The notes beneath the pieces are model-generated. The model saw nothing but the letters and a program-made list of their open reading frames with translations, did not search any database and was not told the DNA's origin. From Ptychomitrium polyphyllum (taxonomy: Eukaryota): a DNA stretch of 64,000 nucleotides. How positions within the stretch are numbered: position 1 is the stretch's first letter; every line of letters begins with the position of its first letter. The position numbers were made by a program, and so were the translations under genes. This document shows, piece after piece, positions 1,788 through 64,000 of the stretch. The stretch covers positions 10,974,001-11,038,000 of the forward strand of contig OZ316776.1 in assembly GCA_973851085.1 (NCBI GenBank). Reading direction: 5' to 3'.

Positions 1788-4700
1788 TTAAGCTCTTGCC
1801 GAAGTCCACGATATGTCGAACTCTTTACCGATGTGGAGCCCTAGACCTGAAATTTCCAGCTTCTGCCCTTCGTGCAACACTTCCACCAGATGCTTCCCGT
1901 TTACATGTACCGAACTTGGAGCATAATCCACACCTAACACCACAACTTTGTCTACAATCCAATCCTCCTTCAGTGCATACTCCCCATGCTTCACATGTGA
2001 AGTTAGAGTGCCATTGTTTTTTCGAAGCTTGTTGTCCACATGAGCGGCAGCTTTGAAGCTCACAAGACTCGATTGATGTGGTTTAAGAATCATGTCAATC
2101 TCTTCCCCGTTGTCCAAGAATACATCACCTGATGCGGATCTTACTCTAATGTCAGAGGTGCTCGGTAGCGCAACAAGCAGAGTGAACGGTGTCTTGCGCG
2201 CGGCGGTTGATGTCAAGGCGCTCTCCTGCATGGGGATGATGGCGCCCTCGTGGACGTGCACGTTGATCACGTCCCACGGCGCTGGCAGGGTGAGACTCTC
2301 GCCCTTGCTGACGATCTGGGAGTGATCGAACATGTTGTACCAGGTGCCTTTCGGGAAGTACGCGTCAACCGTCGTGGCGTTCTCGGTGATGACAGGAGAG
2401 ACGAGAATGTGGTTACCGATGAGGAACTGGTAGGAAACGTCAAGTGTTGTGGCGTCGGTCGGAAACGCGAAGAACAGAGGTCGGATCATTGGGTACCCTT
2501 TCGTGTGCGCTTCATAGTTGAGCGTGTAGTAGTACGGGAGTAGCTGGTACTTCAACCCCAACGCCTTCCTCGCGGACGCCGTGGTCTTGTCGAAGAGATA
2601 AAACTCCTTGTTGTCATTGTCCCTGTTGGAATGCGCTCGCGAAAACGGGTGAAACGCCCCAGTCTGGATCCACCGGCTGCAGAGCTCATCGGACGCCATA
2701 TCGTAGAACCCACAGATGTCCGCCCCTACCATCGGAATCCCTGCCATGCCCGAGTTCATCACCGTCACGATCGAGTACCCAATATCCTCATATGTCGCCT
2801 TGTTATCCCCCGTCCAATGCGCCGTATAAGCACCAGCACCGATGAACGTTGACCTCGACAACAAGAACGGTCGCTTCCCTCTTACCGTCGTAAGCGCAAC
2901 CTTCGTCGCGACCGCCTCCGCCATGCCATACAAACTATGCGCATCATACTCCGTCGTCCCATCATAATGCTGCACCGTCATCGCCGCCGTAAGATGTCCG
3001 AGCGTCTCGTACGTCCCGAAGTGATTCAGCTTGAACGGTGGCTCATCAAGCGTCGTGTGCGTCTCACTGCACTGCAAGTAGCACGCCGTGACGCCTTCAA
3101 GAATCGTCCCGTTCCAAGTGCAGTACGTCCCGGTGCAGAAATTCGATACCTCATTCATGTCGATCCACATGCCGTCGAACGGCAACTGATCGTGGAAGAG
3201 CTGCACTTCGTTCGTCCACCATTGCGTTGCCCTAGGGTGTAAGAAATCAGGGTAAACCACGGGCCCCGGCCACACTTGACCTATGTAGTTCGACTTGCCG
3301 TCTTCGTTCTTCAGGTAGATGTCTTGCTCCAATCCTCGCTTGTAAGTCTGATAATCATCATACGCTGTGCCGATCCCGGGGTCGACGAGGATAACGTAGT
3401 GCTGCCCATTCGCGTGAAGCTCATCAACAAAACCTCGCCACTCTTTCATCGGAAACCTCTCTTCATCGTGGGTGAAGTCCAAGAATCTGTCTGAGTAGTC
3501 GATGTCGTTCCACATCGTGTCCAACGGGATCTCCGCCTTCTTGAAATTCTCCACGATCGTCTTCACGATCGAGACGTTGCGGTATCCCCATCGGCATTGG
3601 TGGAACCCTAGCGCCCAGTATGGTTGAGCGGCGGGGCGACCCACGAGCTGCGTGTATTGATCCACGACTTGCAAAGGAGACGGGCCTGGGAAGAAGTAGA
3701 AATCCAAGACGCCGCCGATGATCCGGAACGTGAGCGAGTCGTCGTTGTAGGTTACTTCCATGCCGTTGCTGTTGAGGAGCAGTACGCCGTGCGCGGCTCC
3801 GCCCTCTCGCACATCGACGTAAAACGGCCAAGCGCCATACAGATCAATGTCAGGAAACAGCGCAGCGATATCGGTAGTCCAGAGCGTGTAGGTCTTGCCT
3901 TTCTTGAGCTTCAACCCGTCCGGCCGCGAGCTCTCGCCTAACCCGAACAGAGTGGTGGTTTTCGGGAGCTGTGTGGAGATTTCAATGTACTGGTCCTTGA
4001 AGACGAGAGGGTTGAAGCCAGCGCCGTCTGCCGGTGGCGTTGAGTTGAACAAGACCTCGCCGGTTGCGATGCGCATCACCGCGAATCCGAACGGTTGCGT
4101 GATGTGTATGATGGTCAGCACCGGCTCCGTTACGGGATCCAGATTCGCAGAGATTGTTAGCCGGGGAATCATGCTCTGTGGAACCTCAAATCTCTGCTTC
4201 GCATCGTCGGAGATGTACACCCGCACTTGCGTGCTCTTCTCGACCCTGCAAGTGGAAGAAGGTGCAAACATGCAGTAACGTATTGATCAGCCATGCGGCA
4301 GTTGACAAGAAAGCTGTGTACTTCATTGGAGAAATTCAAACCTGCGATGGTTCATGATGCACTCTCGTACTGTCAAGATTACGATTCTAACTTAGTATTC
4401 TCATGAACTTCTCAAGGTGTTTCAAACTTTCACGGCAATCAATCATCCTGCTACAAGCTAGTACGTCCGATTCTACTCACGTTGTCGATCATTGCGCGGT
4501 CTATCACTGCAGGCATGTTTGATCTTGTGCAGCTTACACACTAATACATCATTTCCTTGGATGGGAATTAAGGCAGCTGCTAATCATCCGCAAATCAAGT
4601 AGCAAAGACATGATTAAGCTCGCTCCTTAATAAACACTCTGAGAAACGTTTTCAATCTCCACATGCAATTTTTCAAAGTCTTCTTTTATTATCCAAAAAG

Positions 4701-5124: not shown

Positions 5125-8100
5125 GACCTTCACTCTACGACCACTCTAGTCCAGAAAGAAATTTATCCTCGCGCCGAACTTTTGCTGCAAGGAAGGCTCC
5201 ATCACTCAACTTGATCACTGCCATGAATTCAAGCTACTTATGTATCAGAGGAGCTGAATGCAAAAGGCAGGGGTATCCAAAGTAAAATAAAAAGATAATT
5301 TTATCCAAACTCTATTAAAAGAACATAATTATGTAAAATCGTACAAACAAGCGTTATTTTTGTGTGTGAGTACACGTCTACACTAATATTGTTCTGAAGT
5401 CATGTGCAGTCCTGTGAACCAATCTGCCAAGCAAGGATTGAGAGAGTTATTAGCTTGCTTTCCACTCCACCCTAAGTTAGTTGAATGTACTTTGAGATGT
5501 AGAAACTCTCCAAATAGTGAAGCAGCAACTCTCCAAACAAATGGTCATCATCTCTCTGGAGCACGACAACTTTGGAATATTAATAGTGAATTTCCTTTGT
5601 GCGGAGCATTAACTTGATTCACGATAAGATAAAAGCTTTCAAGAAAACGTCTTAGGAACCACTGTGGTAATCGAGGCAAAGAAATTAGGACCTCAGTGTC
5701 GGTTTCCTTGGTTTTCCAAAGCACTTTGAATAGGGATGGCACTTTAAATATGAATATTCTTTAACAATGGGGAACCTCACCCTTTGGTAACATGTTATCA
5801 TCAATACCAGGTTGATTTCAATTGCCTTGTTAGAGAATGTTCTGTGATTGTCAAGAAGGAATACTCTATAGTGTAATACATAGCTAAATTGAGTGCATCT
5901 CATGTTCTATGGAAGTTTCACAATATTTTGAATCTGCCAATCTGCACAGATCCAATATAGCATTCTTTAAAGAACCTCTATTAATACCCTCTTCAAAGGT
6001 GTCATTTTATCATCAATCATCTAGTACAAAGCTAACAAAATTAATTTCATTTTTTAGCTTCACCAAAGGTGAGGTGATCCTACTACAAAAGAATGTGATG
6101 ATGTATTTTACCTTAAGTTCTGGTGTCGTTTCTGGTGTACTACTGCCTGGTTCAACACTAATTCTTCTCTAGTGAAACTTTTGCAAATGGTCGTTACCTT
6201 ATCTCAAAATGCAATATGGGACAATGCTGGAGAATGTTCTGTAAGCATCTGACGTGGTAAAGTGTTCGCCCACTGACAAAAAGGCTTGAGCCTAAAGCCT
6301 CTGCAAAGTGCTTCCAGGGACAGACAACCCTCAAGCAAGCAGCACGTTCAGAATTGCGAAAGCGATCTAATTGTCCTGTCATCTCAATCCAAAAACATGA
6401 AAATGTGAATGTGTTAACAACTTAACACATTATGGGCCTGGAAGAATAAGACAAGCAGAGGTTGCGTACAACTAATCCTTATAGTAAACATCAAAGCTAC
6501 AGAGTTCCCTTTCTATATGAGGCATTGTAATAGGAACAGCAGGCCACTCTTGATGTGCTCTGCTCTTGTGTACTTCAAATTTGGTCTCTTACAAAGTTGC
6601 TAGTGTTGCTTGAATACATAACATTCTTCAATGATCCTTCTAAACACTATCTCAAATAGATAATTCTATCACCAAAAAATATAATTTGATTGTGAAAATC
6701 TTTTATCTATTGAAAAGTGATAGATTTTTTCTATCATTTTACCAAATTAAATTCATATTGTCATGCATTCATTGCAACATGCTCTCATTCTTATTTATAG
6801 TTGATTTACACTTTCTAAGGCAAGGATAAGTTTTTCTTCCATTGCTAAAGAATGTTATATATATTTCACTATACAGATTATAGGGGTTGTCTATTTGCAA
6901 TGAATTAGTAGGTGCATAGGTTCTTATACACAAAAGGAATCCACATGGAGTGTTGACATGATAAAAAAGAAATAATGTTGCGCTTTGAACTTTTGACATG
7001 CAAAATTCCTTGATTTTAAGAATAAACAATGATTTCATTAGAAAAATGAAGTATTGGTTGTTTTTTGATAAGACTCTATTTTGATAGTATATAAAACTAT
7101 ATTTTCAATCAACAAGAATTTTATTAAATTTCAACTTTTTAATAAAATCTAAACTACAAAATTTATGGAAAGACACCCTACTCCAATGAAGTTATGGCTT
7201 CAAATTTAAGGCATTATTGTCATTTGACTAATGATGGAATGCCCAAAATTTAAAATTATGATTTCATTGGAATTAAAATGAATCCTTCTTATCAACATTC
7301 ATTAGTTATATAGAAACATTTTTAAATAATGCAAATCAAAATTATTGCAATTTTTTTATTACTAAATTACAACAAAGGTTTTGTTATGTGATATACATCA
7401 AAATCTTCCAAGACTCTTTACAATAAACTTAATGTTCATTAAAAATCTTTACCAAAGAATGGTTCATTAATTTGGTTTCAGTTTATTTTGCATGGTGATG
7501 AATTGTTTATTGAACATCAACCAACTTTCATTATATATGATTGAAGTATATTTTACAAAAAAATGAATATTAAATTAAATATTTCATTTACTCAATATAA
7601 TTGTTTGTTATTTATTATATTCAAATAAATATCTATTATAATATGTTTAGATTTAATATTTAAGAATGATTTATGAATCAAGTTCAAATTTAACTATGAC
7701 TATATTACATTAATTTTGGCTTGATCTAAATATTATAATCTTCATAATAATGTTTAATATTTTAATTAATCTTAAATTATATGTTCATATTAGAAACAAT
7801 ATAATATTTTATATACATGTATGAATATATGTATTTATACATGTTTTGATAATGGAAATCTTATTTTAATTTTAATTTTAATTTTTGCAATATATGGAAA
7901 AGCATTTTAGAAAGAACCTAAGCGCAAACATAAATGTGATAAATGGCTTAAAACCATTTTTAAATCTGTATGAATCTTTCTTTCATTTCACTAATTGAAA
8001 GGAAAAATAACCAATAGCAAGGCAAACAAAAAAATTAAGTCAAGAATATTTTATATTATTATATGATTATATCTAAAAAATAGCTAATTTTACATTAAAG

Positions 8101-8799
8101 AAAGAATATTAATTTATTTTCCTAGAAATTGAACATTCAAAGTACTACAAGAATATATACATATACATACTCGTAATTATAAAAATATTGAAAGCTAGTA
8201 TTTCTTTATTTGATTAATAAAGAAATATATATATTTTTAATATTATTTTCAGATTTTTTTGGCATTATTATCAATTTTCCATTGTTGCTATTTTAAATCA
8301 TGTTATTTAATAATCGTTTAAGTAGTATACAAAATAATTTTAATGTTTTCCAAAAAATCATTATTATAATTAATTATTTTTTTTCAAAGCTTTTTTATTA
8401 CAAAAGTAATAGTAAAGCAATAGTTATAATAATTAAATACAAATAATCTTATTATGGTATAATAATAATTTAGTATATCTTTGGTACCTATTGTAGTTAT
8501 TGTTTCCTTGCATTAAAGTATACATTTTTTTAAATAGTATGGAAAGGACCATTTTTGTATATCTAATTCAGATATCTAGATAGATATAAGCCAAAGTCCT
8601 ACATTGATCAAATATCTTTAAGATATTTTTTTCTTTCTTTTTTCTTTTTACTTTAAATTAAAAAATAAGTGAAGATACAAATAAATCCAAATTATTCAAA
8701 ATCTAAAGTACTAATCATCCAAAAATAAACAAAAAAAACTCATATTTCTCTATACTTAAATCATACAATATAATTTATAAACTTAAGGTTGATATAAAA

Positions 8800-11500
8800 G
8801 AGTTAAAATATATTTCTTGCTACTCATTTTTTCTTGTTTTTGAAGTATTCCAACCTCAAAGATATGATTCTAATATAAAGTCTTTAGGACTTAAAAACCT
8901 CAAATTACATGCCAATTACAATAGGCAAGTGCTTAATAAATCAATTATAAAAGTTTGATTTTATAAATACAAGAATTTAGAAGGCCTTTTTTTTTCTACA
9001 AATCCAATTGATGTTTCTACAAGAAAAATGTATTTTGAAAGTGATGATCAAAAGATACTTGAGCTACTCAAAGTTTTCCACAAAATTGTTAAATGATTCA
9101 AGATAAATAGAGGCTCTATTACAAAAAGATATTCAAATTTCATTGTCATCTTGAACATTAATCCTTGAAGGTCCAATTATTGTAAATTCAAAATAGGAAG
9201 TAATAAAATAATAGCTAATTTATAATAATCTTTCACCTTAGCCAATTGCATAGCAAAGTTGGCTTCAACATCAATTTGCATTCAATATTGAGAATACAAT
9301 GTATCCATTGTATCCATGGAATAACTTGTTAGAAATCAATTTGAAAGTTTTTTAATGAAGCACTTAATAACATTTGCAAAAACAACAAAAATAATCAAAC
9401 CGTGTTTGAAATACATTATATAAATTTTAATTACTTCTAACGTTTTAAAGATTTAAAAAGAAAACCAAACTCAAGTACCAAAGATCAACTATATAATTTG
9501 ATTCAAGAAGTAAAAGACATTAGTTGTTAACTTTAATTGGCCATAAGGTTTGTAAATGACAATAATTTTTTATTATTATAATTGAAAATTTGAGCAAAAA
9601 GAGATTTTTTTTTTTTCCAATTTAAAATAAAATAAAATAAAATCAAGTAAAGAAATTTTTTAGAAATAAATATCATTTCAAAAACCAAAAATAAATAAAT
9701 ACAAAAATCACATCATATTTATGTAAGACGTTTGAATCTTATTCACACTGCCTTCAAAATTGAGTAGAAAAATACAAATTTCCATAAAGATGGCTAGCAT
9801 ACACAAGTGCTTGAAGTTGATTCCAAGTTTTTACTAACATATAGTCCAAGGCTCATGCCTATCTATCAATAAGCTTATATAATTTAAAAATATGCTAAAT
9901 TCAAAGCATGTAGTTGAATCATTGTATAGCTCATACAATTAAAGTTGGAAAACTTTCATGGCTGTTATATGGTTACAAATGAATTATCCTGTTTTTGTGA
10001 AAATTAATCAAAGTATTCACATTCTTTGATAAGAGAAACAAACAAGACATTATAAGGCACAATGAATTATTGTACATCAACTATATACCGGTTTGTATTA
10101 CCATAGATTTAGTTGAATCTTCCACCCTCTTTCCAGATAAGTTCTTATATTCTAAAAATACACATTTTATAGAGGCAATATCAATAATTGACAAGTCTTC
10201 ATATTTTAAACAATTTTATTGCTATCAATATTCAAATTGGCTGCCAACTTGATAAACTCAAGATGTCTTTTAGGAATATGGGGAAAAAAACTATACAACA
10301 ATTGTAATAAATTTTCAATTTGTAACACTACAAGTGATGGCTGATGTACATAACAATGTATCATTACTGCATAGAAATAATATTATTCATTAATTTGAAT
10401 TATTATATTGGTACAAGAGTTTTATCATATGAATATTTATTAGATATTAATTAACACATCAAAAGACATAATTTGTAATCTAATTACAAATAATAATAAT
10501 ATGTGAGTTAAATATTAACTTCAATATAGATTCTAAAGTATAAAAGAAATAACTTGTATATAAGCACTTACAAGGATAATAAAAATAAGAAATTTATAAA
10601 ATAACTTGGAAGACATCCACACCAAAAGATAATAATGTTTGAAATATACCACCCTTATTTACACTTCCTTCTACAACTAAAGCCTTCATAATCACCTTAG
10701 TGAATTGTCACATCCATTTCCTTCTATTATCCACTCCAAAAATATTATAATAAGAATCATCTTTTAATTAATAATAATATATGCATGAATAGAGATTCAA
10801 CTTTGATAAGCAATTGTTGTCATTTTATTGTAATAAAAGGCCACATATTTAGCCAAATATGGCTTCTTTTATTTTAACACTAATAATATTGTGCATAAAA
10901 TGAGTTAATATTCAACCATTACAATCACTTCAATTCAAGGGATTTAAAAAGAAAATAGTGATTGCATGGAATTATAATCTAATATAAGCCAATCCAAATG
11001 CAAAAGATGAAAAATTGTTGACATCTATTATTTCTTTTGATCCTTTTCACTTAAAAAATCAACATCATTGATTTTTTATAGTATTGTAGCTTGTTGTTGG
11101 GTTGTATATAATGGTAAAATTTTTAAAACAAAAGCACTCACAACAAGAGAAGTTATTAGATAAAAAGATATTTATTTATAAATCTACAAAGTCTAACATA
11201 TTTATAAGTCACAACATGCAAAGTTGTTGTTATTTTATTAAGCAAATGAATTATCAATCAACAAAGACAACAAAAGATTTTTAAAAAAAAAAAAAGTTCA
11301 TATATGTTTTGACATTATAAGTATTTAATTTTTAATATTGAAGTGAGGAAGATTCTTCAAGTTAATCCATTTGCTAACATATTTCTTAAAATTATTGGTT
11401 TTTGGTATCATTAAATAATCACTTTCTTGAATTATTATACATACCATATACTTGACCTTGTCAACCTTATTAGCTTATATATAGATGGTTTTAAAGCACA
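8800..11500 (-). pseudogene. Heavily decayed hAT-superfamily (ZNF862-like) DNA transposase remnant
   Basis: Minus-strand fragments read in the expected order: N*SDCNG*ILTHFMHN (~10940-10885), LAKYVAFYYNKMTTIAYQS*ISIHAYIIIN*KMILIIIFLEWIIEGNGCDN/TKVIMKALVVEG (~10856-10665), IENLLQLLYSFF..PKRHLEFIKLA (~10320-10235), a decayed 'YPQYW'-like motif (~9290) and FKMTMK..NHLTILWK (~9155-9075). These match hAT transposase motifs as I recall them from moss genomes. Many stops and frameshifts; ends are approximate. Confidence 0.7.
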
Positions 11501-11711
11501 AAAAGTTAACTATTCAACTATCTAAGTATTATCTTATAGCACCAATTTTTATTTTATTTTTCTACAATGCTTTGGTTATTTCATTCTTTTTTGGTATTAC
11601 ATTAATCTTACCTAAGTCATCTACTTTTGGAGGAACAAAAGTAAGAAGTTCCTTAAAAAATACAAACACAATTGCAAAATTTGTTAATAAAATGATGTGA
11701 ATGGCTGCATA

Positions 11712-12301
11712 TGTCACGGACATAGATCATGCAACATAGTCCTTAGAACATTCTAGAAACTTCTAATATACTATAATAGCTTCTTATAATACTTTTAAAT
11801 GTCTCCATAGCCTTCCTATGTTCTTAGGAAGCTTCTTAGGAAAGTTCCTCCACCTTAGAAAACTTCCTAGGAAGGTTCTATCATCTTAGGTAACTTCTTA
11901 TGAAATTTCCTACGAAGATTCCATCACCTTAGGAAACTTCCTAAGAAAAGTTCTTCCACCTTAGGAAACTTCTCACCTTAGGAAACTTCCTAAGAAAAGT
12001 TCTTCCACCTTAGGAAACTTCTTAGGAAGGTTCTATCTCTTTAGGAAACTTCCAAGGAAGGTTCTAATTCCTTGGAAGTTTCTTAAGAAGGTTCCAATAT
12101 CTTAGAAAACTTCTTTGGAAGGTTCTCTAGACTTCCAGAACATTTTTAAGCCTTGTAGGAAATTCCTTTAGAAGTATCCTAGGAGATACAAACGTCATAG
12201 TATAAAGTCTTTGTATCAAGTTTTTGTTAATCATTAGCTCTTTAGAAGCTAAGTCTTGGGAAACACTTCGTTTTTGCTTCTTGTTTCTTGTGTCCCTAAC
12301 A
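11712..12301 (+). mobile_element. Solo LTR of an LTR retrotransposon (about 590 bp)
   Basis: Begins TGTCACGGACA and ends TGTCCCTAACA (imperfect TG...CA terminal inverted repeat). Flanked by a 5-bp target-site duplication with one mismatch (gcata 11707-11711 / acata 12302-12306). An internal repeat array is followed by a TATA-like box (TATAAA) at 12201. Confidence 0.75.
11815..12130. repeat. Degenerate array of 'ccttaggaaacttcctaggaagg'-type units inside the solo LTR, including an exact 49-bp tandem duplication (11925-11973 / 11974-12022)
   Basis: Directly visible repeated cttaggaaactt / cttaggaagg units. Confidence 0.9.
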
Positions 12302-27496: not shown

Positions 27497-30400
27497 ATGT
27501 CACTGGAGAGTCTAATCAAGATGCAAAGCGCTGGCGTCCGGAACATCGACGATGCCAACACGCCGAGGCCGGCAGGCGTGGCGCAGGGCGCCGTTCTCGT
27601 CACATTGGACGTCACGAAGGAGATCTGCACGGCGGCTGTCTACTGGGCGCTCGGCAATGTCGTCCGCCGCGGAGATAATTTCAAAATTGTGGGCATCATC
27701 ACGCACGTCTCCAATCCAAGTACGCCGCCACCTACCACGTCGTTCTGGACAGGTCTCCAATCGCTTTGTCTAGGAACTTGGCAGTTAGTGATGCGTTTTT
27801 TCCATGCTGTGGCGTTCTGAACACAAACGTTTCCGATCGTTTTGTTTAGAAAGCTGGTAGTTGACGATCGTTGCGTTTTTTATGCTCAGTGGGTTTCCGA
27901 ACTCGGGTCGACAAGAACAGCTGGATTGGCAGCAACGGCATCATGCTCCAACACGAATTCGGAATTAAGCGCACCATTTTGGAGAATATCGCCCACGTTA
28001 AGGAGTGGTGTGACAAAGCGGGAGTAAGCACCATACCAATCTAGCCTTATGCCAAAAAATTCCTTGTAGATTGATTGCTAAATCATGCACCGCGCGCAAA
28101 TTGCAGGTGACATTGCAGGTCGATGTGAAGGCTGGGTACTCAATCAAGCAGATTGTCGTCGATGAAGCTAAGGCCATCGGCGCCTACCACGTCATCCTGG
28201 ACAAGTGAGCTAGCGCTATCGTACTTGCGATATGACTTTCAGGGATTGTTTGATGTGGCGGTTGGGTTTTGGGGTTTGGGATTCATGGATAAGTCTGCAT
28301 TGATTTCAGGAACATGAAGAGTGATCGGAAGTATTTTGTGGACAATTTGACGTGCTTTGTGTCGCGAGCGCGGAACAGCGGCGGAGTCGACACCATCCGA
28401 TCCTTCTCCGTGTCGAAGCAGCTGCCGCCGCTTGTGCCCACTCCACCCAATACCGTGCGGAGCAGCTTGCAGGCATCGCAGCCCATTCCGACGTCGGACT
28501 CCGCGGTGTCTTTCGGATCCAATCATTCGAATCATTCGGTCTCCTCAGGCTCCTTCGACATAGGCGCCTCCAGCGATGACTTCCTCACTCAGGACAGCGA
28601 TTTGTATTCCGCAGCGCCTACCACTGGCGAGTCTCTCGACGAAGCGCCGATGTACCGCGCGTCAATTCCTATTCGTACTGCAAGCGGAGCAAATGTGGAG
28701 AAAGCACCCGCTGCAATGCAGCGTCAGACGCCTGAGGCGGGATACAATCTCGTCAACCGGAAGCCCGCTCTCCGGAAGTGGCTGGCGGAGGAGGATCAAG
28801 CGCAATCGCCGGCTGATGTCTCTCAGTATGATAACCACAATCCAAGTACATTGAATGACCGCCCCCACAAAATCCTCGGGCCGGCTCCAGTTGTAGAGCA
28901 GCAGGTGCGCCGCACTCCAACGACCTTCCTTGAGAAATCTGTGCACGCTCCGCCAATGCCCGTCGTGCCCATAAATCTTCAACTTTCCCCAGGACGCGCC
29001 AATGTTCCAGTGAATGTACCAGAGAAGGTGACCACTCTGCATGCCCCACCGTTGTCGAGGATGCCGTCGCCCCCGCACAGCAAGCTGTCGCAGAGCTTGC
29101 ATAAGACGGTGTGGGTGTGGACTCGGAGCAAGGAGGTGATGCGGAGCGCTGTGGAGGTTGGCTGGACGACATTCATCTTCACTCCCGACACCAAGTTCAT
29201 GGCCCCGCAGTGGACTTGTATGTCAAACCCTTAGACCTCACTTGCAAGTTCTGTATCTGGACTTTGGCCTTGAATTTTGCGTAATAATGTTTGCTGGAGC
29301 AATGATGAAATGAGTTGATGATGTACAGCTATCGAGTGGATCAAGCCCCTGTTTCTAGAACGAGGACGGTTTCTGAACCAGGAGGGCAAGCAAGTGGCCC
29401 TCCTTGGCCAGGTCTACTCTGGCGAGCAGCTGGATTACCTCCCTGCGATGATGGGCGGCGCTGAAACCGTTGTTATCAATGATCTCGACTGGCAGGTTCG
29501 TGATCAAAGTAATCAGCGAATCGCTTGGCTTTTCGTAGTTACGTAGAAAATCGTTGGTTGACATTCCTTTCGGATTTGTCCTTCGTGCAGATTATCCCCC
29601 CTGAAGACGTGGTCGCAGCCTTCCAAGGAAGGCGCACTCAGCTCTTCGCTACGGCCAACACCGCCTCCGATGCCCAAGTATACCTCGAGGTATGTACAGA
29701 CCCTCACCTCACCTTAGCCGATTTAGCTTTGAGGTCAATTTGCTAATAGAAGAGTTCATCTGAAATTTTCACTTGCAGGCTCTGGAGGTGGGCATGGATG
29801 GGGTGGTGCTGCACACAGACAACCTCGCCGAAATCGGTTTACTTCGGGTATGTATTCACAACCGCAATCTTGCCACCTCGATTAATAATCAACATAATTC
29901 CTAGCTCAATTGTGCAAATAGGGAGGGATTGTCTGAGGTTTTTGTTGATTGCAGGATTACCTGACCAAGAAGAAGATAGAGAAGGAGCGTGCCCAAGAGT
30001 GGACGAGCGTGCAGCCACCCATCAAGGAGGTGGGTGGGGTGGGCGAGCCGGAGCCGGAGCCAGAGCAGGAACTGGAACTCCCCGGATTGACGTCCGAGCA
30101 CTCCATGACGAGGTCCGAGACCAGTAACGGGGTGCAGCGGGTGGCCTCCTCGCCAAGATCGGATTCGAATCCTCTCAACCGCGCCGGCTCGTCGCCGCGG
30201 CTCATGGAATCGCTCAGTAACTGCTCAGCACTCACGACGTTCGTGGCACCGCCAGCCACACCAGGGTTGCGCCTTGTGAACGCCACAGTCAAGAGCGTTG
30301 TCTCTGTGGGCGAGGGTGACCGAGTGTCCGTGGACCTCTGCAACCTGCTGAATTCTGGCGAGGCTATGCTTGTGGGTTCCTTCTCCAAAGGCATGTTCCT

Positions 30401-31023
30401 GGTGCATTCCGAGGTCCAAGCCAACAACACAACGCGTAAATCATTCCGTGTTAATGCGGTGAGCAATGATCTCCACTCTGCACGTGACTTCAAAATCCAT
30501 ATCTCACAAGTGATCTCGATAATATGAAGCTAATGACTATTTTGCAACGTTTTCTGCAATGGCAGGGTCCTGTACATGCGTACACAGGCATGGCTGGAGG
30601 GCGCATCACCTATCTGTCTGAACTGGAGTCAGGAGGGCAGGTACTGGCGGTGGATGCGCATGGCAACTCCCGCACAGTTCTTGTGGGGCGTGTTTCGATC
30701 GAGTCCAGGCCTCTCGTTCTTGTTGTGGTTGACGTTAACGGTGAAAACTTCAGTGTCATGCTTCAACAATCGGATTCAGTACGCCTTGTCATTCCTGCAG
30801 GTGGATTACACTCTCAACCTTACTTCTGCAGTTCTAGGTTTAAGTAAAGAAAACTTGTATTGAATGGATATGTACAGTACCTTAGATTTCAGCTAACTCA
30901 AGTTGATGTTGTTTTTCTTCAGAGCATCAAAGTCCAGGTAAGGAAGCCATCGCCGTGACAAAACTGCTACCGGGAGACATTGTCGTTTTGAGTATGGAAG
31001 ACGACGAAGCATATGAGCAGTAA
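27497..31023 (+). CDS. Chimeric protein: RLCK-type USP-like N-terminal domain + Ser/Pro-rich linker + type II 3-dehydroquinate synthase (AroB'-like) domain; 10 exons, about 845 aa
   Basis: Exons 27497-27719, 27890-28023, 28107-28204, 28310-29217, 29329-29495, 29591-29689, 29779-29847, 29955-30458, 30566-30800 and 30923-31023 are all GT-AG and total 2538 nt with the frame open. USP-like part: VLVTLDVTKEICTAAVYWALGNVVRRGD...HVILDKNMKSDRKYFVDNLTCFVSR. DHQS-II part: KTVWVWTRSKEVMRSAVEVGW, DWQIIPPED, LEALEVGMDGVVL, GEGDRVSVDLCNLL, MLVGSFSKGMFLVHSE, FRVNAGPVHAY, YLSEL, VGRVSIESRPL. Confidence 0.85.
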
Positions 31024-32070: not shown

Positions 32071-32757
32071 CTACTTACAGACGAAGACATTCCAGTGAAA
32101 GATGAAGCGGGGACCGTCGTTGGGGGCATTGTCAGCCACCACGTAGCCATGTGAGCCACGGAAGTGCCCTGTTCCGCCAAGGATGATCAGCTCGTAAGGC
32201 GTCTTCTTTCCTCCGACATTACCACTGAATGTAATTGTGGAGCCCTTGTACTTGCCCTCTACGAATGTGATCTTGCTAAGGAGCTGCAGTGCTTCCTCAC
32301 TATTCTGGTCCGTAACAACGCCCCAGCCTCTCTCGCGACCCAGGAGCGTGCTGTCCGCGCCCAAACCCTCCCTCACTTCATTGTCAAAAACGAATGACGA
32401 CCCCCACTGAAGTGGTTTGGTGTTAGGAGGAAGGTTTGCCAGCTTCAAAGTTGCGGTCTTGTCATTTGGGTCGGCAGAGCGGATCTCGTGGATGTAAAAC
32501 TCCAAAGTTTCTTTCACCTTTTGCTTGTCCTCGTGGGTTAGAAGCTCCTTCAGCCCACTTCTTACAACTCCTGATGCATTCCTCCTAGATGGCTCATTGG
32601 GGAATCTCAGGGCAGTGGTGGATTCTTGGGCGATTCTGTGGGTGCGAAGTGCCAGAGTTGAAGAGCGGAAGGAGGACGAGCCGAAGAACTGCTGGCGTGT
32701 GGAAGTGATGGCTGTGAATGCCGAATGACTTCGCTGCAAGAGTGATGTGGCTGCCAT
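32071..32757 (-). CDS. Intronless dirigent-domain protein with a putative plastid transit peptide (228 aa)
   Basis: Dirigent motifs LEFYIHE, WGSSFVFDNEVREG, LLGRERG, YKGSTITFSG and ELIILGGTGHFRGSHGY. The N-terminal ~65 aa are Ser/Thr/Arg-rich with few acidic residues and no hydrophobic core. Confidence 0.85.
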   Translation of the reverse strand: MAATSLLQRSHSAFTAITSTRQQFFGSSSFRSSTLALRTHRIAQESTTALRFPNEPSRRNASGVVRSGLKELLTHEDKQKVKETLEFYIHEIRSADPNDKTATLKLANLPPNTKPLQWGSSFVFDNEVREGLGADSTLLGRERGWGVVTDQNSEEALQLLSKITFVEGKYKGSTITFSGNVGGKKTPYELIILGGTGHFRGSHGYVVADNAPNDGPRFIFHWNVFVCK

Positions 32758-34964
32758 TATGGTTGCTCTGCTCTGGCCTTGAAATCAATCCTTTTTGCTT
32801 TCAACTCTATAATGCAAAGTAAAAGTATCTTCAGCACAATCTCCAAGGAAATGGCAGTCAGAATTAGAACCCCAACGAGCTGAATCGGATCAGGCCTGTG
32901 CAATGACCGGAGTAGCTCTTTGTGATTGTTCAATGTAATCAATAACATGTGTGATTTACTTCAATGACAATAGCCGAAAACATATAAAGCAAATGCTGCC
33001 AAGTAGAAAGCCTGTAGAAGGGCACTACTCGAGCGACACACAAAAATCGGCTATGTCCAACCACAGTTGCAAAGACAAATCAGCATCTTCATTTGCAGCA
33101 GCAACTTTGACATCATCAAAATTGCAACATTGGGTTTACAACCGAGGCTACTCAATACGCAGAAAAAGCAATAGTGATACAAAACTAGTGGAATCAATCG
33201 TTACGTTTCCCAGGAGACCCACATTACAACAAAGACTTACATCGTGCTGAAGGAAACTCGAATTGAACTCTACTCTGATCCAGAATCACAATGCTAGAAG
33301 CTAGGAGTTCATTGAACTCACAGGTGTCTGACCGATTTGAAGGAGGTAGAGCAGGTATTAGCCGGTCCGACGAACTCTTCAGCGGCAGACCTTGCAAAGA
33401 AAACGAGTGTGAGGAGTTAAATGCGTGGATTCAGCTACGGCTGCTGAACTAGAAGTGACACCAGTATCACGTGGGATCATGTGAAGGCAAGTTGTGCGGT
33501 AAACGAAAGTCATTCATTCTTCGCAATTGACGAAGATCGATTTATGCTATGAAAATTATAGAAAATAAAAATAAAATTACAACACTAAATTCCGCTCAAG
33601 CAAAGCCCTAATTGTTTCAGAATATGCTACCGATAGTTTTTTGTAGCACGTTGAAACGGAAGGGAATGACTGGAGCTTTGCGTGCAGGGAGCCTTGTACC
33701 ATTTGCCCCTAGACGAGTGCAACACAAGAGGGCTACAGTAGTTCTGTAAGGCAGTCTTTTTACAAGCTGACCTCGACTGTCACAGTGAAAATAACTTACC
33801 AAACACCGTTGTTTGAATAGCCCTTTCGTCTTTCCTGTGTAAAGGAAAACGCTACTCTCACAACATGTGTGAAGAATCCATCGAAAGCACATTAGATGGT
33901 GTAGCCCATGATTAAATAGAAATAAATTCCTTATCTTCAGGATCGACTCATGTCCAGTCACAGGAAGAAGCTGGCACCCAGCATTAGTGTCTTCTCGTTC
34001 TTTGCTAGCCCACGTTTTTCATGTGTGCGCACTCAGCAAAAACTGTTTCTTCACGGTTTCATCGACGTCCCCTATCCGTTGGACATTAATGAAACAACCG
34101 GTCCACATTTCATTAATCCAATGGACAAATCGACATGACACCAATGATAGGGACCTTCTCATCACCTGTGCTCCCCGTGCGTGATTACATTTCAAGGACG
34201 ACTTTCCCCAGATGCTATGCAAGAAGACTCTCATAAGTTTATCTGGTGGTACTACAAGGCTTTATGAAGAAGAAACTTAAACCTTTCGTGACGTCCTTCA
34301 AAGGATAGTCTAAGTTGTCGAAGAAGCTACTGCTGATTCACTAATTACTTGGCTGTACACTTGGCTGTTACCCACTACAGCAGTAACTTCCAGTAGATCC
34401 TGATCCAAGTGCTATGGTTCGTTATGCAGCGACCCCAAGATCCATAATCAGCCTTGATTTGCAAATCCACTCTGTTTTGAGCATGTATAAAAGAGAAAGA
34501 ACTAGAATCCAATAATGAATAAATATAAGAAATTCAAGACAAACTAAGCCCATAGACACTAAAGTAACGGAGGACAACTTTGAAGAATCGTCGCAACCAG
34601 ATAAGACCATCAATACTAAGTTCTTAAACCCATTACGATTTCAAATTCCTAAACCTTCGCTTCTTTAATATCCTCTTCTAAGAACGCCTGAACTCACGAA
34701 ACACGGCCCAATCACTAATCTTCAAAACGGAAAGTCGGACATCCATAGGGTAAAAAAGGTCACGTGTCTCAGCCCACTGCAATCATACAGTGACGGGGCA
34801 CACATATAAATTCCTGTATGGACATATTCGCCCACATTGCTTCAACAGAATCTTAAACGGTACTACTTATACTGAAACACAGAAGTCTCTTCAAAATTGA
34901 TGTACAATAAGCCCCTCCGTCCGAAGCTAGCTGTTGCAAGTGAAACGATCCGAAGTAGAAAATA

Positions 34965-47445: not shown

Positions 47446-59014
<11,569 letters not shown>

Positions 59015-59930: not shown

Positions 59931-62007
59931 CCAAGTAGTACGGGATCTGAAGCCTACATCTCAAAGTTAGGGTGAGAAATTTCTTTGAACTTGAATCGTC
60001 ACTTTTCTAACTTACTTTTGATCACTTATGCAGACTTTCTTGAAGGGCAACATTGTGCTGCAGATTAACTTAGTACAGTAGTTAGTTCAGGCTAGTGGTA
60101 TATCGGTATCCATTGTGCTGTACCTTGGCTCTGATCCAACAGGCTCGCCAACGATTACCTTAGTTTGTGAGCATTGGAAAATTCTCATTGGATCATTGTC
60201 CATTTTACATGGTATGGTAGGATTGAGTTAGGGAATTCTAGAAATGACGTGTTGCCTTATGTAAATATATTGAATACAGTATAAATGATTATTTACGCAA
60301 GGCTATAATTTTTACAAAACCATTTGTCAAAAAAATTTAAATCTTGTGCAAAAATTAACATTTTTTGTCAAAAGTCTTGTGCAAGTAATATTTTATAAAA
60401 GAATAATAGTTTGTAAAATCATTTATCAAGAATCAAAATTTTAACATTGTCAAAGCCATAGTATTGGCATTGTTAAATACCATTTTTAGTGTACTACTAA
60501 GATTACATTGGTTATGATTCTAATCTATAAATATTTAATGTTCAGTTTTGGTTCTTACTATTAAATAAGTAGAAAATAAAAGTCTTGAAAATAAAAAACA
60601 ATTGGAAATGACTAAGAATACAAGACACATACAAGGGCGTTGCTTGGATGGAACAATTTGAACTTGGGATAATTGTGCCTATAATCATTAAGAATGTTAA
60701 GTTATATTATAAATTATCTCTTAAATACATGCATTTGGAAGTTATAACTAGATTGTATTTGATATATTATTAAATAAAAGTGGAACAAAGACAAGAGACA
60801 AAAACAAAAGTAAAAACATTGAGGCTATTCATATCAAACATTATAATTATAAGTTGTTATAACGCATAATATCCCAACATAAAGAAGATATTATAGTTCC
60901 TAATAAATATGAAGGTGTAGAATTTCATTGTCTATTGAAAACCATTTACAAAATTAATTTGAAGCAATGAATTATTTACACATGATTAGATTTAAAAACA
61001 CATATTACATTCTTTATTCATTAAACACAAAACAACCATAAAAATGTATAAAAGAAAGGTGGTAAAGTTGATATAATATTTTTTGAAGTACAATGAAGCA
61101 TTACTTAAGAATAAAAATAAGTGAAAATCAATATATTAAGATGGATAAGTTATGCATTTTCAACAATATTTTAAACCTCAAAAACAATGAGACTAATAAA
61201 GGTATTTTTAGCCTTTCTGGAAAACATTCAACAAAGGAAGATGCATACTAGTATTTTCATAAATTTTGATATTATAAAATTTAGATAATAAATATTTAAT
61301 TAATATTTAATTAATTTTTTTGTTAAAAACCTGATTTTTTTATATGATTGCTCATCAAAGTAGCTGCCATGGCTTAGCTAGTGGTAAGCTTTATAATAAT
61401 TTTTAAAAAGAAAAAAATTAAAATTTTCAAATTGGAATAACAATTTATTATATATTTTTAAATTTTTAGGAATTGTTTTTAAAACAATATTATCAAAAAA
61501 TTTAAAATGTTGTAAAAGAAAATATATGGTCTTCTTTATTCTTTAGAATTAAAGCTTTTATAAATGACAAATTTTTAGAAACAATATAGGCTATTTTAAA
61601 ATTAACTCAAGATTTCTTTGAAAATATACTTGAATAATATTATGGTTGTTTTTTGAAATGATAGAACGTTACAATTGTGTAATATATACTGATTAATCAT
61701 CTATTATTGCAAGTGATTATTATTTAAGTATATGTGATTTTTTTTAGCAATAAAAAATAATATTTTTAAGTTCAAAATTATTTGAAGTAAACATGTTCAT
61801 TACAAGCAATTTTTTACAACCACCATCTACAAAATAATTTTATCACTACTAATAATAAATTTGATGGTACATTGACGAGCCAAAGTGGAAGATAAGATTT
61901 GTAAATAGTCATAATAAGCACAACATATGATAAATGATAAAATTATAGAAGGAAGGATGAAATTTACTAATTAATCTTTGAAGCTTTATTAATGATAGGC
62001 TTAAAGT

Positions 62008-62429
62008 TGTTATGGACAGAGTAACTACAAGACAAGGCTTTAGAATTACATGATGTGGAACAAGAGATGTCCAAAATATATTAGAAGTAAAGAGCTATGA
62101 CAAGGTACAGAAGACAATGTCAGAAGGTCCGAATTAGACCACAAGAAATGCGTTGTCGAGACTGAAGATTCCTTCAGCCTTGACTTCTATATATATTAGA
62201 ACTACAAGCCTTGAAAGCTTCTTGGAAAGCTTTTCTTACATTGCTTCGTACTCGAGCAACCTTGAGTTGCTTCCTTCGAAGTTTCCTAAGCCAAAGGTAA
62301 CTTCTTTGGAAGCTTCCTAAGCCAAAGGTAACTTCTTTGGAAGTTTTCTAAGTCAAGGTAACTTCCTTGGAAGCTTCTTAAACCTTCTAAGAATCTTTCT
62401 AGATACTTCTAATATGTATGTCTGTGACA
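62008..62429 (-). mobile_element. Solo LTR (about 422 bp), related to the element at 11712-12301 and in the opposite orientation
   Basis: Ends TGTTATGGACA...TGTCTGTGACA (imperfect inverted repeat). Flanked by aaagt (62003-62007) and aatgt (62430-62434), a 5-bp duplication with one mismatch. Contains an 'aaggtaacttctttggaagcttcctaag' repeat array at 62270-62400 and a TATA-like run at ~62188-62196. Confidence 0.75.
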
Positions 62430-62855
62430 AATGTAAGATGGAAATTTAAATTGAATCAAATAAATGATTTAAACACATTAGTATATTCAAAAAACTAATT
62501 TGTAATGGTAATAATTTCCACCTACCAATTATTATGGTGGTTCGATAGTACTACCTTTTAAAAATCATAATTGATTCTTATTTTATATATAAATTGTAAT
62601 TCCACTTATATTTTTTCAAAACATTAATGCTATTGAAGATTTTGTAAAAGATGTCTTGTAATGTAAGGATGATTTGAATCTTTATTGTAATGGTTGTAGA
62701 TTGACTTACCTTACTTTTATTTAAGATAAGCAATGAAAAACGTCTACAGAAGATTTAATAAGATTATAAAAAATTATTAAAAATTTGTAAAAGATTTTTT
62801 TATAATTATCTTTCTCATGTATATACATCGTTATAAAAATATTATAGCAATGTTA

Positions 62856-62925
62856 AATACAACTAATAGATTAAAAAAATTAATATACATAATACAACTA
62901 ATAGATTAAAAAAATTAATATACAT
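62856..62925. repeat. Exact 35-bp tandem duplication in AT-rich intergenic DNA
   Basis: aatacaactaatagattaaaaaaattaatatacat occurs twice, adjacent. Confidence 0.9.
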
Positions 62926-64000
62926 ATTTTTTTAATATAAGTTTTATACAAAATAATTATTTTTATATATCTATTAAAAAATAAAAAATACGTGTTTCAT
63001 TTAAAGGTTTTAAATAAATATAAAATAATTATTGAAATAAAAACGACCACATGTCTTTTATTCAAATATAAAAGGTCACTATACATTTAAGAAATTTAAG
63101 AAATTTGGAATAGAACTTTGCATAAAGGTTATTATATAAGATGCATCACACAATCAAATGATTTCTTAAAATTAGAAAGTTAAACATCATAATTATTTTA
63201 AATACCTTTTCAAATACCAAATAATGATTTTTTTAATTTTTAATTTTTAATTTTAAAAAATAATATTATAGTGGGATAATGAAAATCCATATTTAAACCT
63301 TATTTAAATACTAATTTTGCTAATTTTGACGTTTTATCAATGAAAATCTAACTTTACAAAGAAACTACTAAAATTTAATGCATACTTGTGATTTTTTCCT
63401 CATAAAATTCCAAAAAATCATCACATTACTGTATTTTGAAAATACACAATCTTTTATTTTATAATATATATTGAAACCTGAGATAAGTAACTTTAGTACA
63501 TAATTTGTGAAATTTGTAATCAAGAAAACTGTAAAAATACTATATGTATATAATGATGTTTTATACTTTGCAGAAATTGCAACATGTTAAAAAACAATTT
63601 TATCAGTGACAAAAAGGAATTAAAAAGTCAACAGCAATAAAAGTTATCAAATTCATTGTTAAATATGACAACACACGTTTATAGAAATTACGCATGTTAT
63701 AAGAGTGATAATACATAATTGTAATGTTATTAAATTTCATACAATTGCGTTGATGTTTGCGTAAAGAGGCAATTCACCAAACAGTCTGTTCTTAAAAGAT
63801 ACAAAGAAGAAGGAAATACTAAAAACTGTCACTACCGAATGACTTTATGATTTTGAAAGCTTAGAATGTAGTTATTCCAACTTTTAACATACAAAACTCT
63901 AACTAACAGTTACAGCAATTTGAATATATTCATAATTGATGATGTCCATAATCTACTCCTAAAAACAAGTGCATTACCCCGCTTTACTATTCGTTGCACT

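Follow-up and report, generated by a model that had tools for sequence, protein, structure and literature searches.

Type II dehydroquinate synthases (DHQS-II; AroB', MJ1249 family) are described as carrying out an NAD-dependent oxidative deamination and cyclisation to dehydroquinate (DHQ), the proteins in question being MJ1249 and OE1475F (PMC4162585). The universal stress proteins (USPs) that bind ATP carry the motif G-2X-G-9X-G(S/T) (PMC5168468, PMC12649090), and STUNTED, a receptor-like cytoplasmic kinase (RLCK), bears a USP-like domain (PMC13566284). Here we analyze a gene in which these two kinds of domain meet. It lies in a stretch of 64,000 nucleotides from Ptychomitrium polyphyllum (contig OZ316776.1, positions 10,974,001 to 11,038,000), which we call the window, and it is predicted to encode a protein of 845 amino acids (aa) made of a USP-like domain, a linker, a reduced TIM barrel, an insert, and a Hint-like domain, with the barrel and the Hint-like domain derived from DHQS-II.

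We consider that this protein may be a cytosolic pseudoenzyme that acts as an adaptor or ligand sensor and does not make dehydroquinate, a reading to which we give a probability of about 0.5. The loss of 16 of 59 residues that are otherwise invariant in DHQS-II points in this direction. The component domains are known, and public databases list proteins of this kind either as uncharacterised or under the name '3-dehydroquinate synthase'; Pfam annotation hides the fusion because the USP part scores below the cutoff. In the open literature (subscription journals, supplements, and the Pfam, InterPro, and ECOD texts lay outside the search) we found no description of a USP/DHQS-II fusion or of a link between DHQS-II and the Hint fold, which agrees with an earlier sequence-only reading of this stretch that knew of no account of the architecture. 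The assignment of PF26558 to the Hint fold may already stand in domain-database texts.

A single gene encodes both domains

The fusion gene (27497..31023, + strand) consists of ten exons, at 27497-27719, 27890-28023, 28107-28204, 28310-29217, 29329-29495, 29591-29689, 29779-29847, 29955-30458, 30566-30800, and 30923-31023. Spliced together, they gave an in-frame 845 codons followed by a stop, and all nine introns were of the GT-AG type, with lengths of 83-170 nt and GC contents of 0.34-0.48 against 0.48-0.60 in the exons. The single 10-exon frame of about 845 aa that the sequence-only reading had drawn thus holds. Matches to the DHQS-II family PF01959 were found in three of the ten exon translations (exon 6, E 1e-4, just below the cutoff; exon 8, E 8e-20; exon 9, E 3e-24) and in homologues, in keeping with the proposed DHQS-II identity of the C-terminal part. 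No Usp match was found in any of the ten single-exon translations scanned, and no protein kinase match in these ten translations or in nine full-length homologues. The 64-kb window held neither a second copy of the fusion gene nor a kinase remnant.

The junction itself lies inside exon 4 (28310..29217, + strand, 908 nt), whose residues 152-454 form one stop-free stretch that takes in the close of the USP-like domain, the linker, and the start of DHQS-II; an exon-like open reading frame (ORF) of the same kind occurs in nine other records. Of 11 fragments hand-picked for inspection, these nine have a single ORF that bridges the end of the USP-like domain and the start of DHQS-II, and most of the bridging fragments pass into intron-like sequence at the identical exon-4 boundary. 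When compared with the 887-aa Ceratodon protein P0011, the window model aligned over its residues 1-845 at 79.5% identity. Because the junction falls within exon 4, the Ceratodon protein matches from end to end, and nine ORFs bridge the junction, the fusion is neither a chance event nor a gene-model join. It was likewise right to hold that no two adjoining genes had been run together, and the window gene almost certainly encodes a real single protein. Logan contigs of 3,257-3,752 nt additionally carry uninterrupted full-length ORFs of 828-947 aa (P0020, P0045, and P0023, the last on 54 contigs), which, coming from an intron-rich gene, would imply spliced transcripts in relatives. For the window gene, the two sequencing runs compared with the stretch gave genomic-type contigs only; those of one run are near-identical to it throughout, and that run is possibly the source of this DNA.

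Loss of invariant residues in the DHQS-II part

To define invariant positions, we built an alignment of the DHQS-II part from 17 fused proteins, 106 of 107 non-fused plant proteins (the remaining one lacked the motif used for trimming), and 78 ORFs taken from 80 archaeal loci. A column was called invariant when it was at least 95% identical in both the non-fused plant set and the archaeal set, which gave 59 columns. The window protein retains 43 of the 59, its clade members P0011, P0002, P0021, P0040, and P0004 retain 41-49, and members of a second fused group retain 47-52. The fused paralogues P0073 and P0077, in contrast, retain 59 of 59, and P0075 retains 57. No non-fused sequence has lost more than three invariant residues, a comparison with some circularity, as the columns were drawn in part from these same sequences; the intact fused paralogues are a fair control because fused proteins were excluded from that definition.

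The losses are unevenly placed. The N-domain of DHQS-II (29100..29978, + strand; aa 416-574), a predicted reduced TIM barrel, keeps 10 of its 11 invariant residues (N to D at 516), and the C-domain (30267..31002, + strand; aa 671-839), a predicted circularly permuted Hint fold, keeps 33 of 48. This Hint-like domain therefore accounts for 48 of the 59 invariant columns and for 15 of the window protein's 16 losses. Substitutions at invariant positions include N516D, C691S, G703A, Y724N, S727R, R728K, P729S, T748I, K778S, N802Q, A803S, E804D, and T805S. The C-terminal RHxG...EK tail, whose RHxG is invariant from archaea to angiosperms, is missing.

These changes are not accompanied by general divergence of the domains. 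Identities for the USP-like, barrel, and Hint-like domains were 90, 94, and 89% to Ceratodon and 64, 77, and 66% to Sphagnum, and in the DHQS-II tree the window clade (support 100/100) has a long stem (0.36) and short tips. Such branch lengths, together with conserved domains, are what a change in role followed by constraint would leave, rather than decay. As judged from these alignments, the window protein is probably not an active DHQ synthase, and we lean towards its being non-catalytic altogether.

Predicted folds of the two DHQS-II domains

The structure predictions for the fused proteins come from an AlphaFold2 model of the Ceratodon orthologue P0011, which has three confident domains and disordered linkers. 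The N-domain of its DHQS-II part matched TrpF 1v5x (Z 11.7; root-mean-square deviation [rmsd] 2.6; 144 residues aligned), and the top match of the C-domain was the intein 5ol6 (Z 12.9, rmsd 2.9, 136 of 145 residues aligned). A model of the Sphagnum stand-alone DHQS-II, P0076, agreed with this arrangement. Built from 39 sequences with a mean predicted local distance difference test (pLDDT) of 75, it has a reduced TIM barrel at about 50-206 (TrpF Z 12.4) and a beta domain at 216-384, whose best matches were the four SICLOPPS inteins 5ol1, 5ol5, 5ol6, and 5ol7 (Z 12.8-13.3 and rmsd 2.6-3.2, with 131-138 of 139-145 residues aligned).

In the SICLOPPS constructs, the C-part of the intein is placed first, and a match to this order suggests that the DHQS-II C-domain is a circularly permuted Hint fold. 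A weak Pfam Hint match in P0060 (E 0.089) puts profile positions 16-47 at mid-domain, as a permutation predicts. Natural-order inteins were absent from the 50 structure matches listed per search, and a sequence search of the PDB found no solved relative of DHQS-II. Foldseek yielded no clear match, with low TM-scores for its integrin and aldolase rows and, in a separate run, nothing at E ≤ 0.001.

The motifs RVCVD, HSE, NAG, and QNAET lie, by eye and against the intein blocks, where the Hint fold presumably gathers its blocks. From this convergence of conserved motifs at Hint-block positions, we infer that the DHQS-II active site may be found in the Hint-like domain. By the same comparison, we took none of the splicing residues (the N-terminal Cys/Ser nucleophile and the terminal His-Asn) to be evident. 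Self-cleavage by the domain was considered and was unsupported.

The N-terminal domain and its kinase relatives

The USP-like domain (27584..28412, + strand; aa 30-186, exons 1-4) is of the type found in USP-kinases and was recognised by structure match and by its profile relatives. Residues 27-176 of the P0011 model matched UspA 3s3t (Z 11.8, rmsd 3.4, 130 residues aligned), MJ0577 1mjh (Z 11.3), and 1q77 (Z 11.1), as would be expected if the USP-like identity proposed for this region were right. None of nine fused proteins reached the gathering score of PF00582 and only three had weak matches (best 20.7 bits against 24), while a relative, P0264, exceeded it at 26.1 bits. Of the two domains named in the sequence-only reading, DHQS-II was hence recovered by Pfam (PF01959), whereas Usp stayed below the cutoff, although the structure match places it in the USP fold.

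A profile built from 11 N-domains gave 335 matches at E ≤ 0.001 among 1.84 billion representatives. We scanned 72 of the best 150, chiefly longer ones, with Pfam and found a kinase in 42, a DHQS half in 8, and neither in 22, which bears out the view that this USP type precedes the kinase of plant RLCKs. Named USP-kinase relatives include P0260 from Hevea (annotated 'inactive protein kinase SELMODRAFT_444075'), P0252 from Physcomitrium, and P0262 from Ceratopteris, these three with E values of 1e-33 to 1e-29. P0252 resembles the window protein through its USP part only. In a quick tree of USP domains, all of those linked to DHQS clustered with this Physcomitrium kinase (SH-aLRT 90). The ATP motif G-2X-G-9X-G(S/T) was found in 0 of 153 near-complete domains of this USP type, the USP-kinase relatives included, and the glycines of the USP structure 2gm3 align with non-glycine residues in the N-domain. 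In P0240, a 566-aa protein of the liverwort Calypogeia fissa, a USP-like domain of this type occurs twice, and Pfam finds neither a kinase nor a DHQS match.

The linker that follows (28413..29099, + strand; aa 187-415) is rich in Ser, Pro, and Thr (33% together), has six SP/TP sites, and is predicted to be disordered, with pLDDT below 50 nearly throughout in the P0011 model. It contains a short conserved motif around RKWL (28761..28793, + strand; aa 303-313) that is present from Sphagnum through the window protein. A similar RQWL motif occurs in the linker of P0252 and was not found in three other kinase clusters checked. Between the DHQS-II halves lies a clade-specific insert of 96 aa (29979..30266, + strand; aa 575-670), predicted to be mostly disordered, which has no counterpart in stand-alone DHQS-II enzymes or in other fused clades. 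Identity to Sphagnum was 29% in the linker and 16% in the insert. As a crude composition proxy for loss of plastid targeting, we counted acidic residues in the first 40 positions: the window protein has four, and the stand-alone DHQS-II proteins have a median of one, with two or fewer in 95% of 83.

A multigene family of mosses

A search with exon 4 returned ten longer proteins, all ten with PF01959, with Ceratodon, Physcomitrium, and Sphagnum among the sources. A search with the N-domain only returned 11 proteins of 520-1658 aa, again all with PF01959. The named loci comprise six three-domain genes of Physcomitrium together with PHYPA_024709 (hence at least seven in this moss), four of Ceratodon, and three fused genes of Sphagnum magellanicum. 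In the DHQS-II search, 7,989 candidates were scored and the best 120 of 2,232 matches were considered. Among these 120, the named records that matched the USP profile were from mosses only (other records could be from other plants), and the liverwort, fern, gymnosperm, and angiosperm entries had no USP-profile match. Hornworts, lycophytes, and algae were absent from the named matches listed, no search having been aimed at them. Sphagnum has a 397-aa stand-alone DHQS-II that is annotated consistently in several species; no stand-alone DHQS-II of Physcomitrium or Ceratodon was among the best 120 of 2,232 matches. On the same best 120 matches, P0073, P0077, and P0075 may be the only intact DHQS-II copies in Physcomitrium and Ceratodon.

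In a DHQS-II tree of 47 hand-chosen rows, the fused proteins and the Sphagnum stand-alone enzyme formed one moss clade (99/99). The branch that parts the stand-alone enzyme from the fused proteins is weak (85/52); a single fusion event is thus likely, yet the stand-alone enzyme may have arisen secondarily. The separate DHQS-II and USP trees support the origin by domain shuffling that was proposed from the sequence.

Local profiles of the two DHQS-II halves, run over 150 representatives, identified a subfamily with USP and Hint-like domains and no TIM barrel. It comprises eight clusters at 50% identity (P0239, P0241, P0244, P0246, P0253, P0255, P0256, and P0257), includes the Physcomitrium protein PHYPA_024709, and often has a long N-terminal low-complexity extension; two exon-4 fragments were also found. 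These members have retained 15-23 of the 48 invariant residues; in the tree they branch from the moss side, a placement that carries a long-branch warning. With USP and Hint-only members, the family persists without the whole enzyme. By sequence, then, the architecture belongs to a multigene family of mosses in which some members are intact, others degenerate, and others half-deleted.

Some candidates were rejected. Three archaeal ORFs of 614-651 aa that looked like fusions are apparently stop-to-stop frames read in upstream of the true start, and the long non-moss DHQS-II entries P0099, P0100, P0107, P0146, P0180, and P0185 had no USP-profile match. Two of the latter, the Brassica entries P0180 and P0185 (985-999 aa), are DHQS-II annotated with PF06746 and are possibly gene-model joins.

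Possible origin and function of the fusion

In the history that we propose, the 5' exons of a USP-kinase gene, encoding the USP domain and part of the linker, would have been joined to a DHQS-II gene in an early moss, where they would have replaced the transit-peptide-like leader of the enzyme. The grouping of the fused USP domains with P0252, whose linker has a similar motif, supports a USP-kinase origin. The fused gene may then have been duplicated. One branch would have retained the full catalytic signature, the window branch would have had its pocket remodelled, gained the spacer, and lost the C-terminal tail, and another would have dropped the TIM barrel. The USP domain, having no ATP motif, could serve for dimerisation or docking, with members of its own family or the ancestral USP-kinases as the probable partners, and the remodelled Hint-like pocket could bind, but not turn over, a small molecule or a partner. 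The Ser/Pro linkers might offer phosphorylation sites. That such an adaptor or sensor is tied to USP-kinase signalling is a tentative proposal. We are more doubtful of a broader scenario, in which mosses turned an orphan archaeal-type enzyme into a signalling family by way of intact enzyme, pseudoenzyme, and USP plus Hint, and in which a permuted, active-site-bearing Hint fold became a metabolite receptor after capture of the USP-kinase module, reporting a plant DHQS-II metabolite to USP-kinase signalling.

Several points weigh against a pseudoenzyme of this kind. With no solved relative found by sequence, 'invariant' serves here as a proxy for 'catalytic', and the role of plant DHQS-II is not established. 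Even in an archaeon, M. maripaludis, a homologue was not required for aromatic amino acids (PMC4162585). The structure model is that of the Ceratodon orthologue rather than of the window protein, and with a predicted template-modelling score of 0.45 it offers no indication that the domains pack in a fixed way. The position of P0252, a long branch, is unsure, and support for the deep splits among USP domains is weak (54-90). P0004, the member of the clade from Sphagnum, has just one acidic residue in its first 40. Finally, several of the clade-fixed changes are conservative (E to D, T to S, N to D), and FRVNAG, HSE, and YLSE are retained as motifs, which would fit a changed substrate too.

This last point leads to the possibility that the protein is still an enzyme, with a new substrate or reaction and a USP domain that is regulatory or oligomerising. 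The conservative changes N516D, P729S, E804D, and T805S are fixed in six of six clade members, the core motifs are intact, and the TIM barrel is 94% conserved; the family is also catalytically plastic, with the same fold scoring against the AHBA synthase model BagC/FevH. However, the loss of the RHxG tail, the 96-aa spacer between the halves, and a sister subfamily that is entirely without the barrel count against this, and we consider a new reaction rather unlikely.

For the window protein, it seems improbable that it is an ordinary, active DHQS-II that carries its USP domain as a passenger, as may be the case for the intact P0073 and P0077. The orthologue has a Pfam DHQS score of about 270 bits and both domains have high pLDDT, and the lack of a stand-alone Physcomitrium or Ceratodon copy among the matches listed means that fused copies may do the old job. 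The change of 16 of 59 invariant residues, against at most three in non-fused sequences (the partly circular comparison noted above), speaks against this for the window protein, as does the availability of intact fused paralogues for that job.

It is quite improbable that the locus works mainly through separate USP-only or DHQS-only proteins, made by way of alternative starts, retained introns, or processing, and not through the long frame. Ceratodon isoforms of 734-795 aa are on record, as are Logan ORFs of 606-614 aa with a start inside the linker (55 and 34 contigs), and the P0237 cluster, whose representative matches P0073, has ORFs of 393-428 aa that cover USP and linker. Nevertheless, the junction lies within one exon, the full-length ORFs on contigs of 3.3-3.8 kb would imply a spliced mRNA, and the clade alignment has no conserved internal Met with a leader-length stretch ahead of the barrel. 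Sensing of ATP or another nucleotide through the USP domain is highly improbable: the nearest folds include the ATP- or AMP-binding USPs 3s3t, 1mjh, and 2gm3, and the motif-less USP YnaF is listed with ATP in PMC5168468, but the absence of the motif from all 153 domains and the non-glycine residues facing the 2gm3 glycines argue against it.

A pseudoenzyme that acts as an adaptor or ligand sensor thus remains the reading we prefer. The sequence-only reading was correct in its domain identities, and its suggestion of nucleotide sensing is not supported; it missed the insert, the degeneracy, the moss multigene family, and the predicted Hint fold.

Neighbouring genes in the window

A dirigent-like, intronless gene (32071-32784, - strand; PF03018, E 9e-26) lies about 1 kb downstream of the fusion gene and is convergent with it. 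Its product has a long Ser/Thr/Arg-rich leader that is transit-peptide-like. An intron-free frame of 832 aa at 1788-4286 (- strand) encodes what we take to be a GH31 alpha-glucosidase/xylosidase. Exons at 47446-57398 (- strand) presumably belong to a CHD3/PICKLE-like chromatin remodeller, to judge from PHD, chromo, and helicase-like pieces, and include an 845-aa open terminal stretch with short repeated SLEDVLR-like units. The regions 7001-12000 and 60001-64000 are very AT-rich (GC 0.20-0.28) and have no frame of at least 150 aa.

Comparison with known systems

If our reading holds, the window gene offers a clear and conserved case in which a kinase regulatory module was grafted onto a metabolic enzyme that then lost catalytic residues. 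The family forms a natural series (stand-alone, fused intact, fused degenerate, and USP plus Hint only) in Physcomitrium, a moss whose genes are readily knocked out, and the positions of the lost residues indicate where the active site is likely to be. The prediction of a permuted Hint fold bears on the entire AroB'/AHBA-synthase family, beyond mosses, and, if true, would bring a small-molecule enzyme into the fold class of inteins.

The model of the DHQS-II C-domain shares the Hint fold with the SICLOPPS Npu and Ssp inteins (Z 12.8-13.3) at 8-12% identity. In contrast to inteins, it matches the engineered permuted order only, is without evident splicing residues, and is embedded in a metabolic enzyme family. 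With universal stress proteins (PF00582; UspA, MJ0577, At3g01520), the window protein shares a predicted fold (Z 11.3-11.8 over about 130 residues), but the fused proteins fall below the Pfam cutoff (nine of nine scanned) and have no ATP motif. The USP-domain RLCKs of the SELMODRAFT_444075 family share a homologous USP-like domain that is likewise without the ATP motif and is followed by a long low-complexity linker; the window protein, however, has a DHQS-II-derived region in place of their kinase. Both domains of that region are shared with the stand-alone DHQS-II (PF01959 and PF26558) of archaea, liverworts, a fern, seed plants, and Sphagnum, and the Ceratodon orthologue is about 54-62% identical to the Sphagnum enzyme and nests in the moss DHQS-II clade (99/99). 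Compared with these enzymes, the window protein has a USP domain instead of a short leader, the 96-aa insert, losses at 16 of 59 invariant positions, and a truncated C-terminus.

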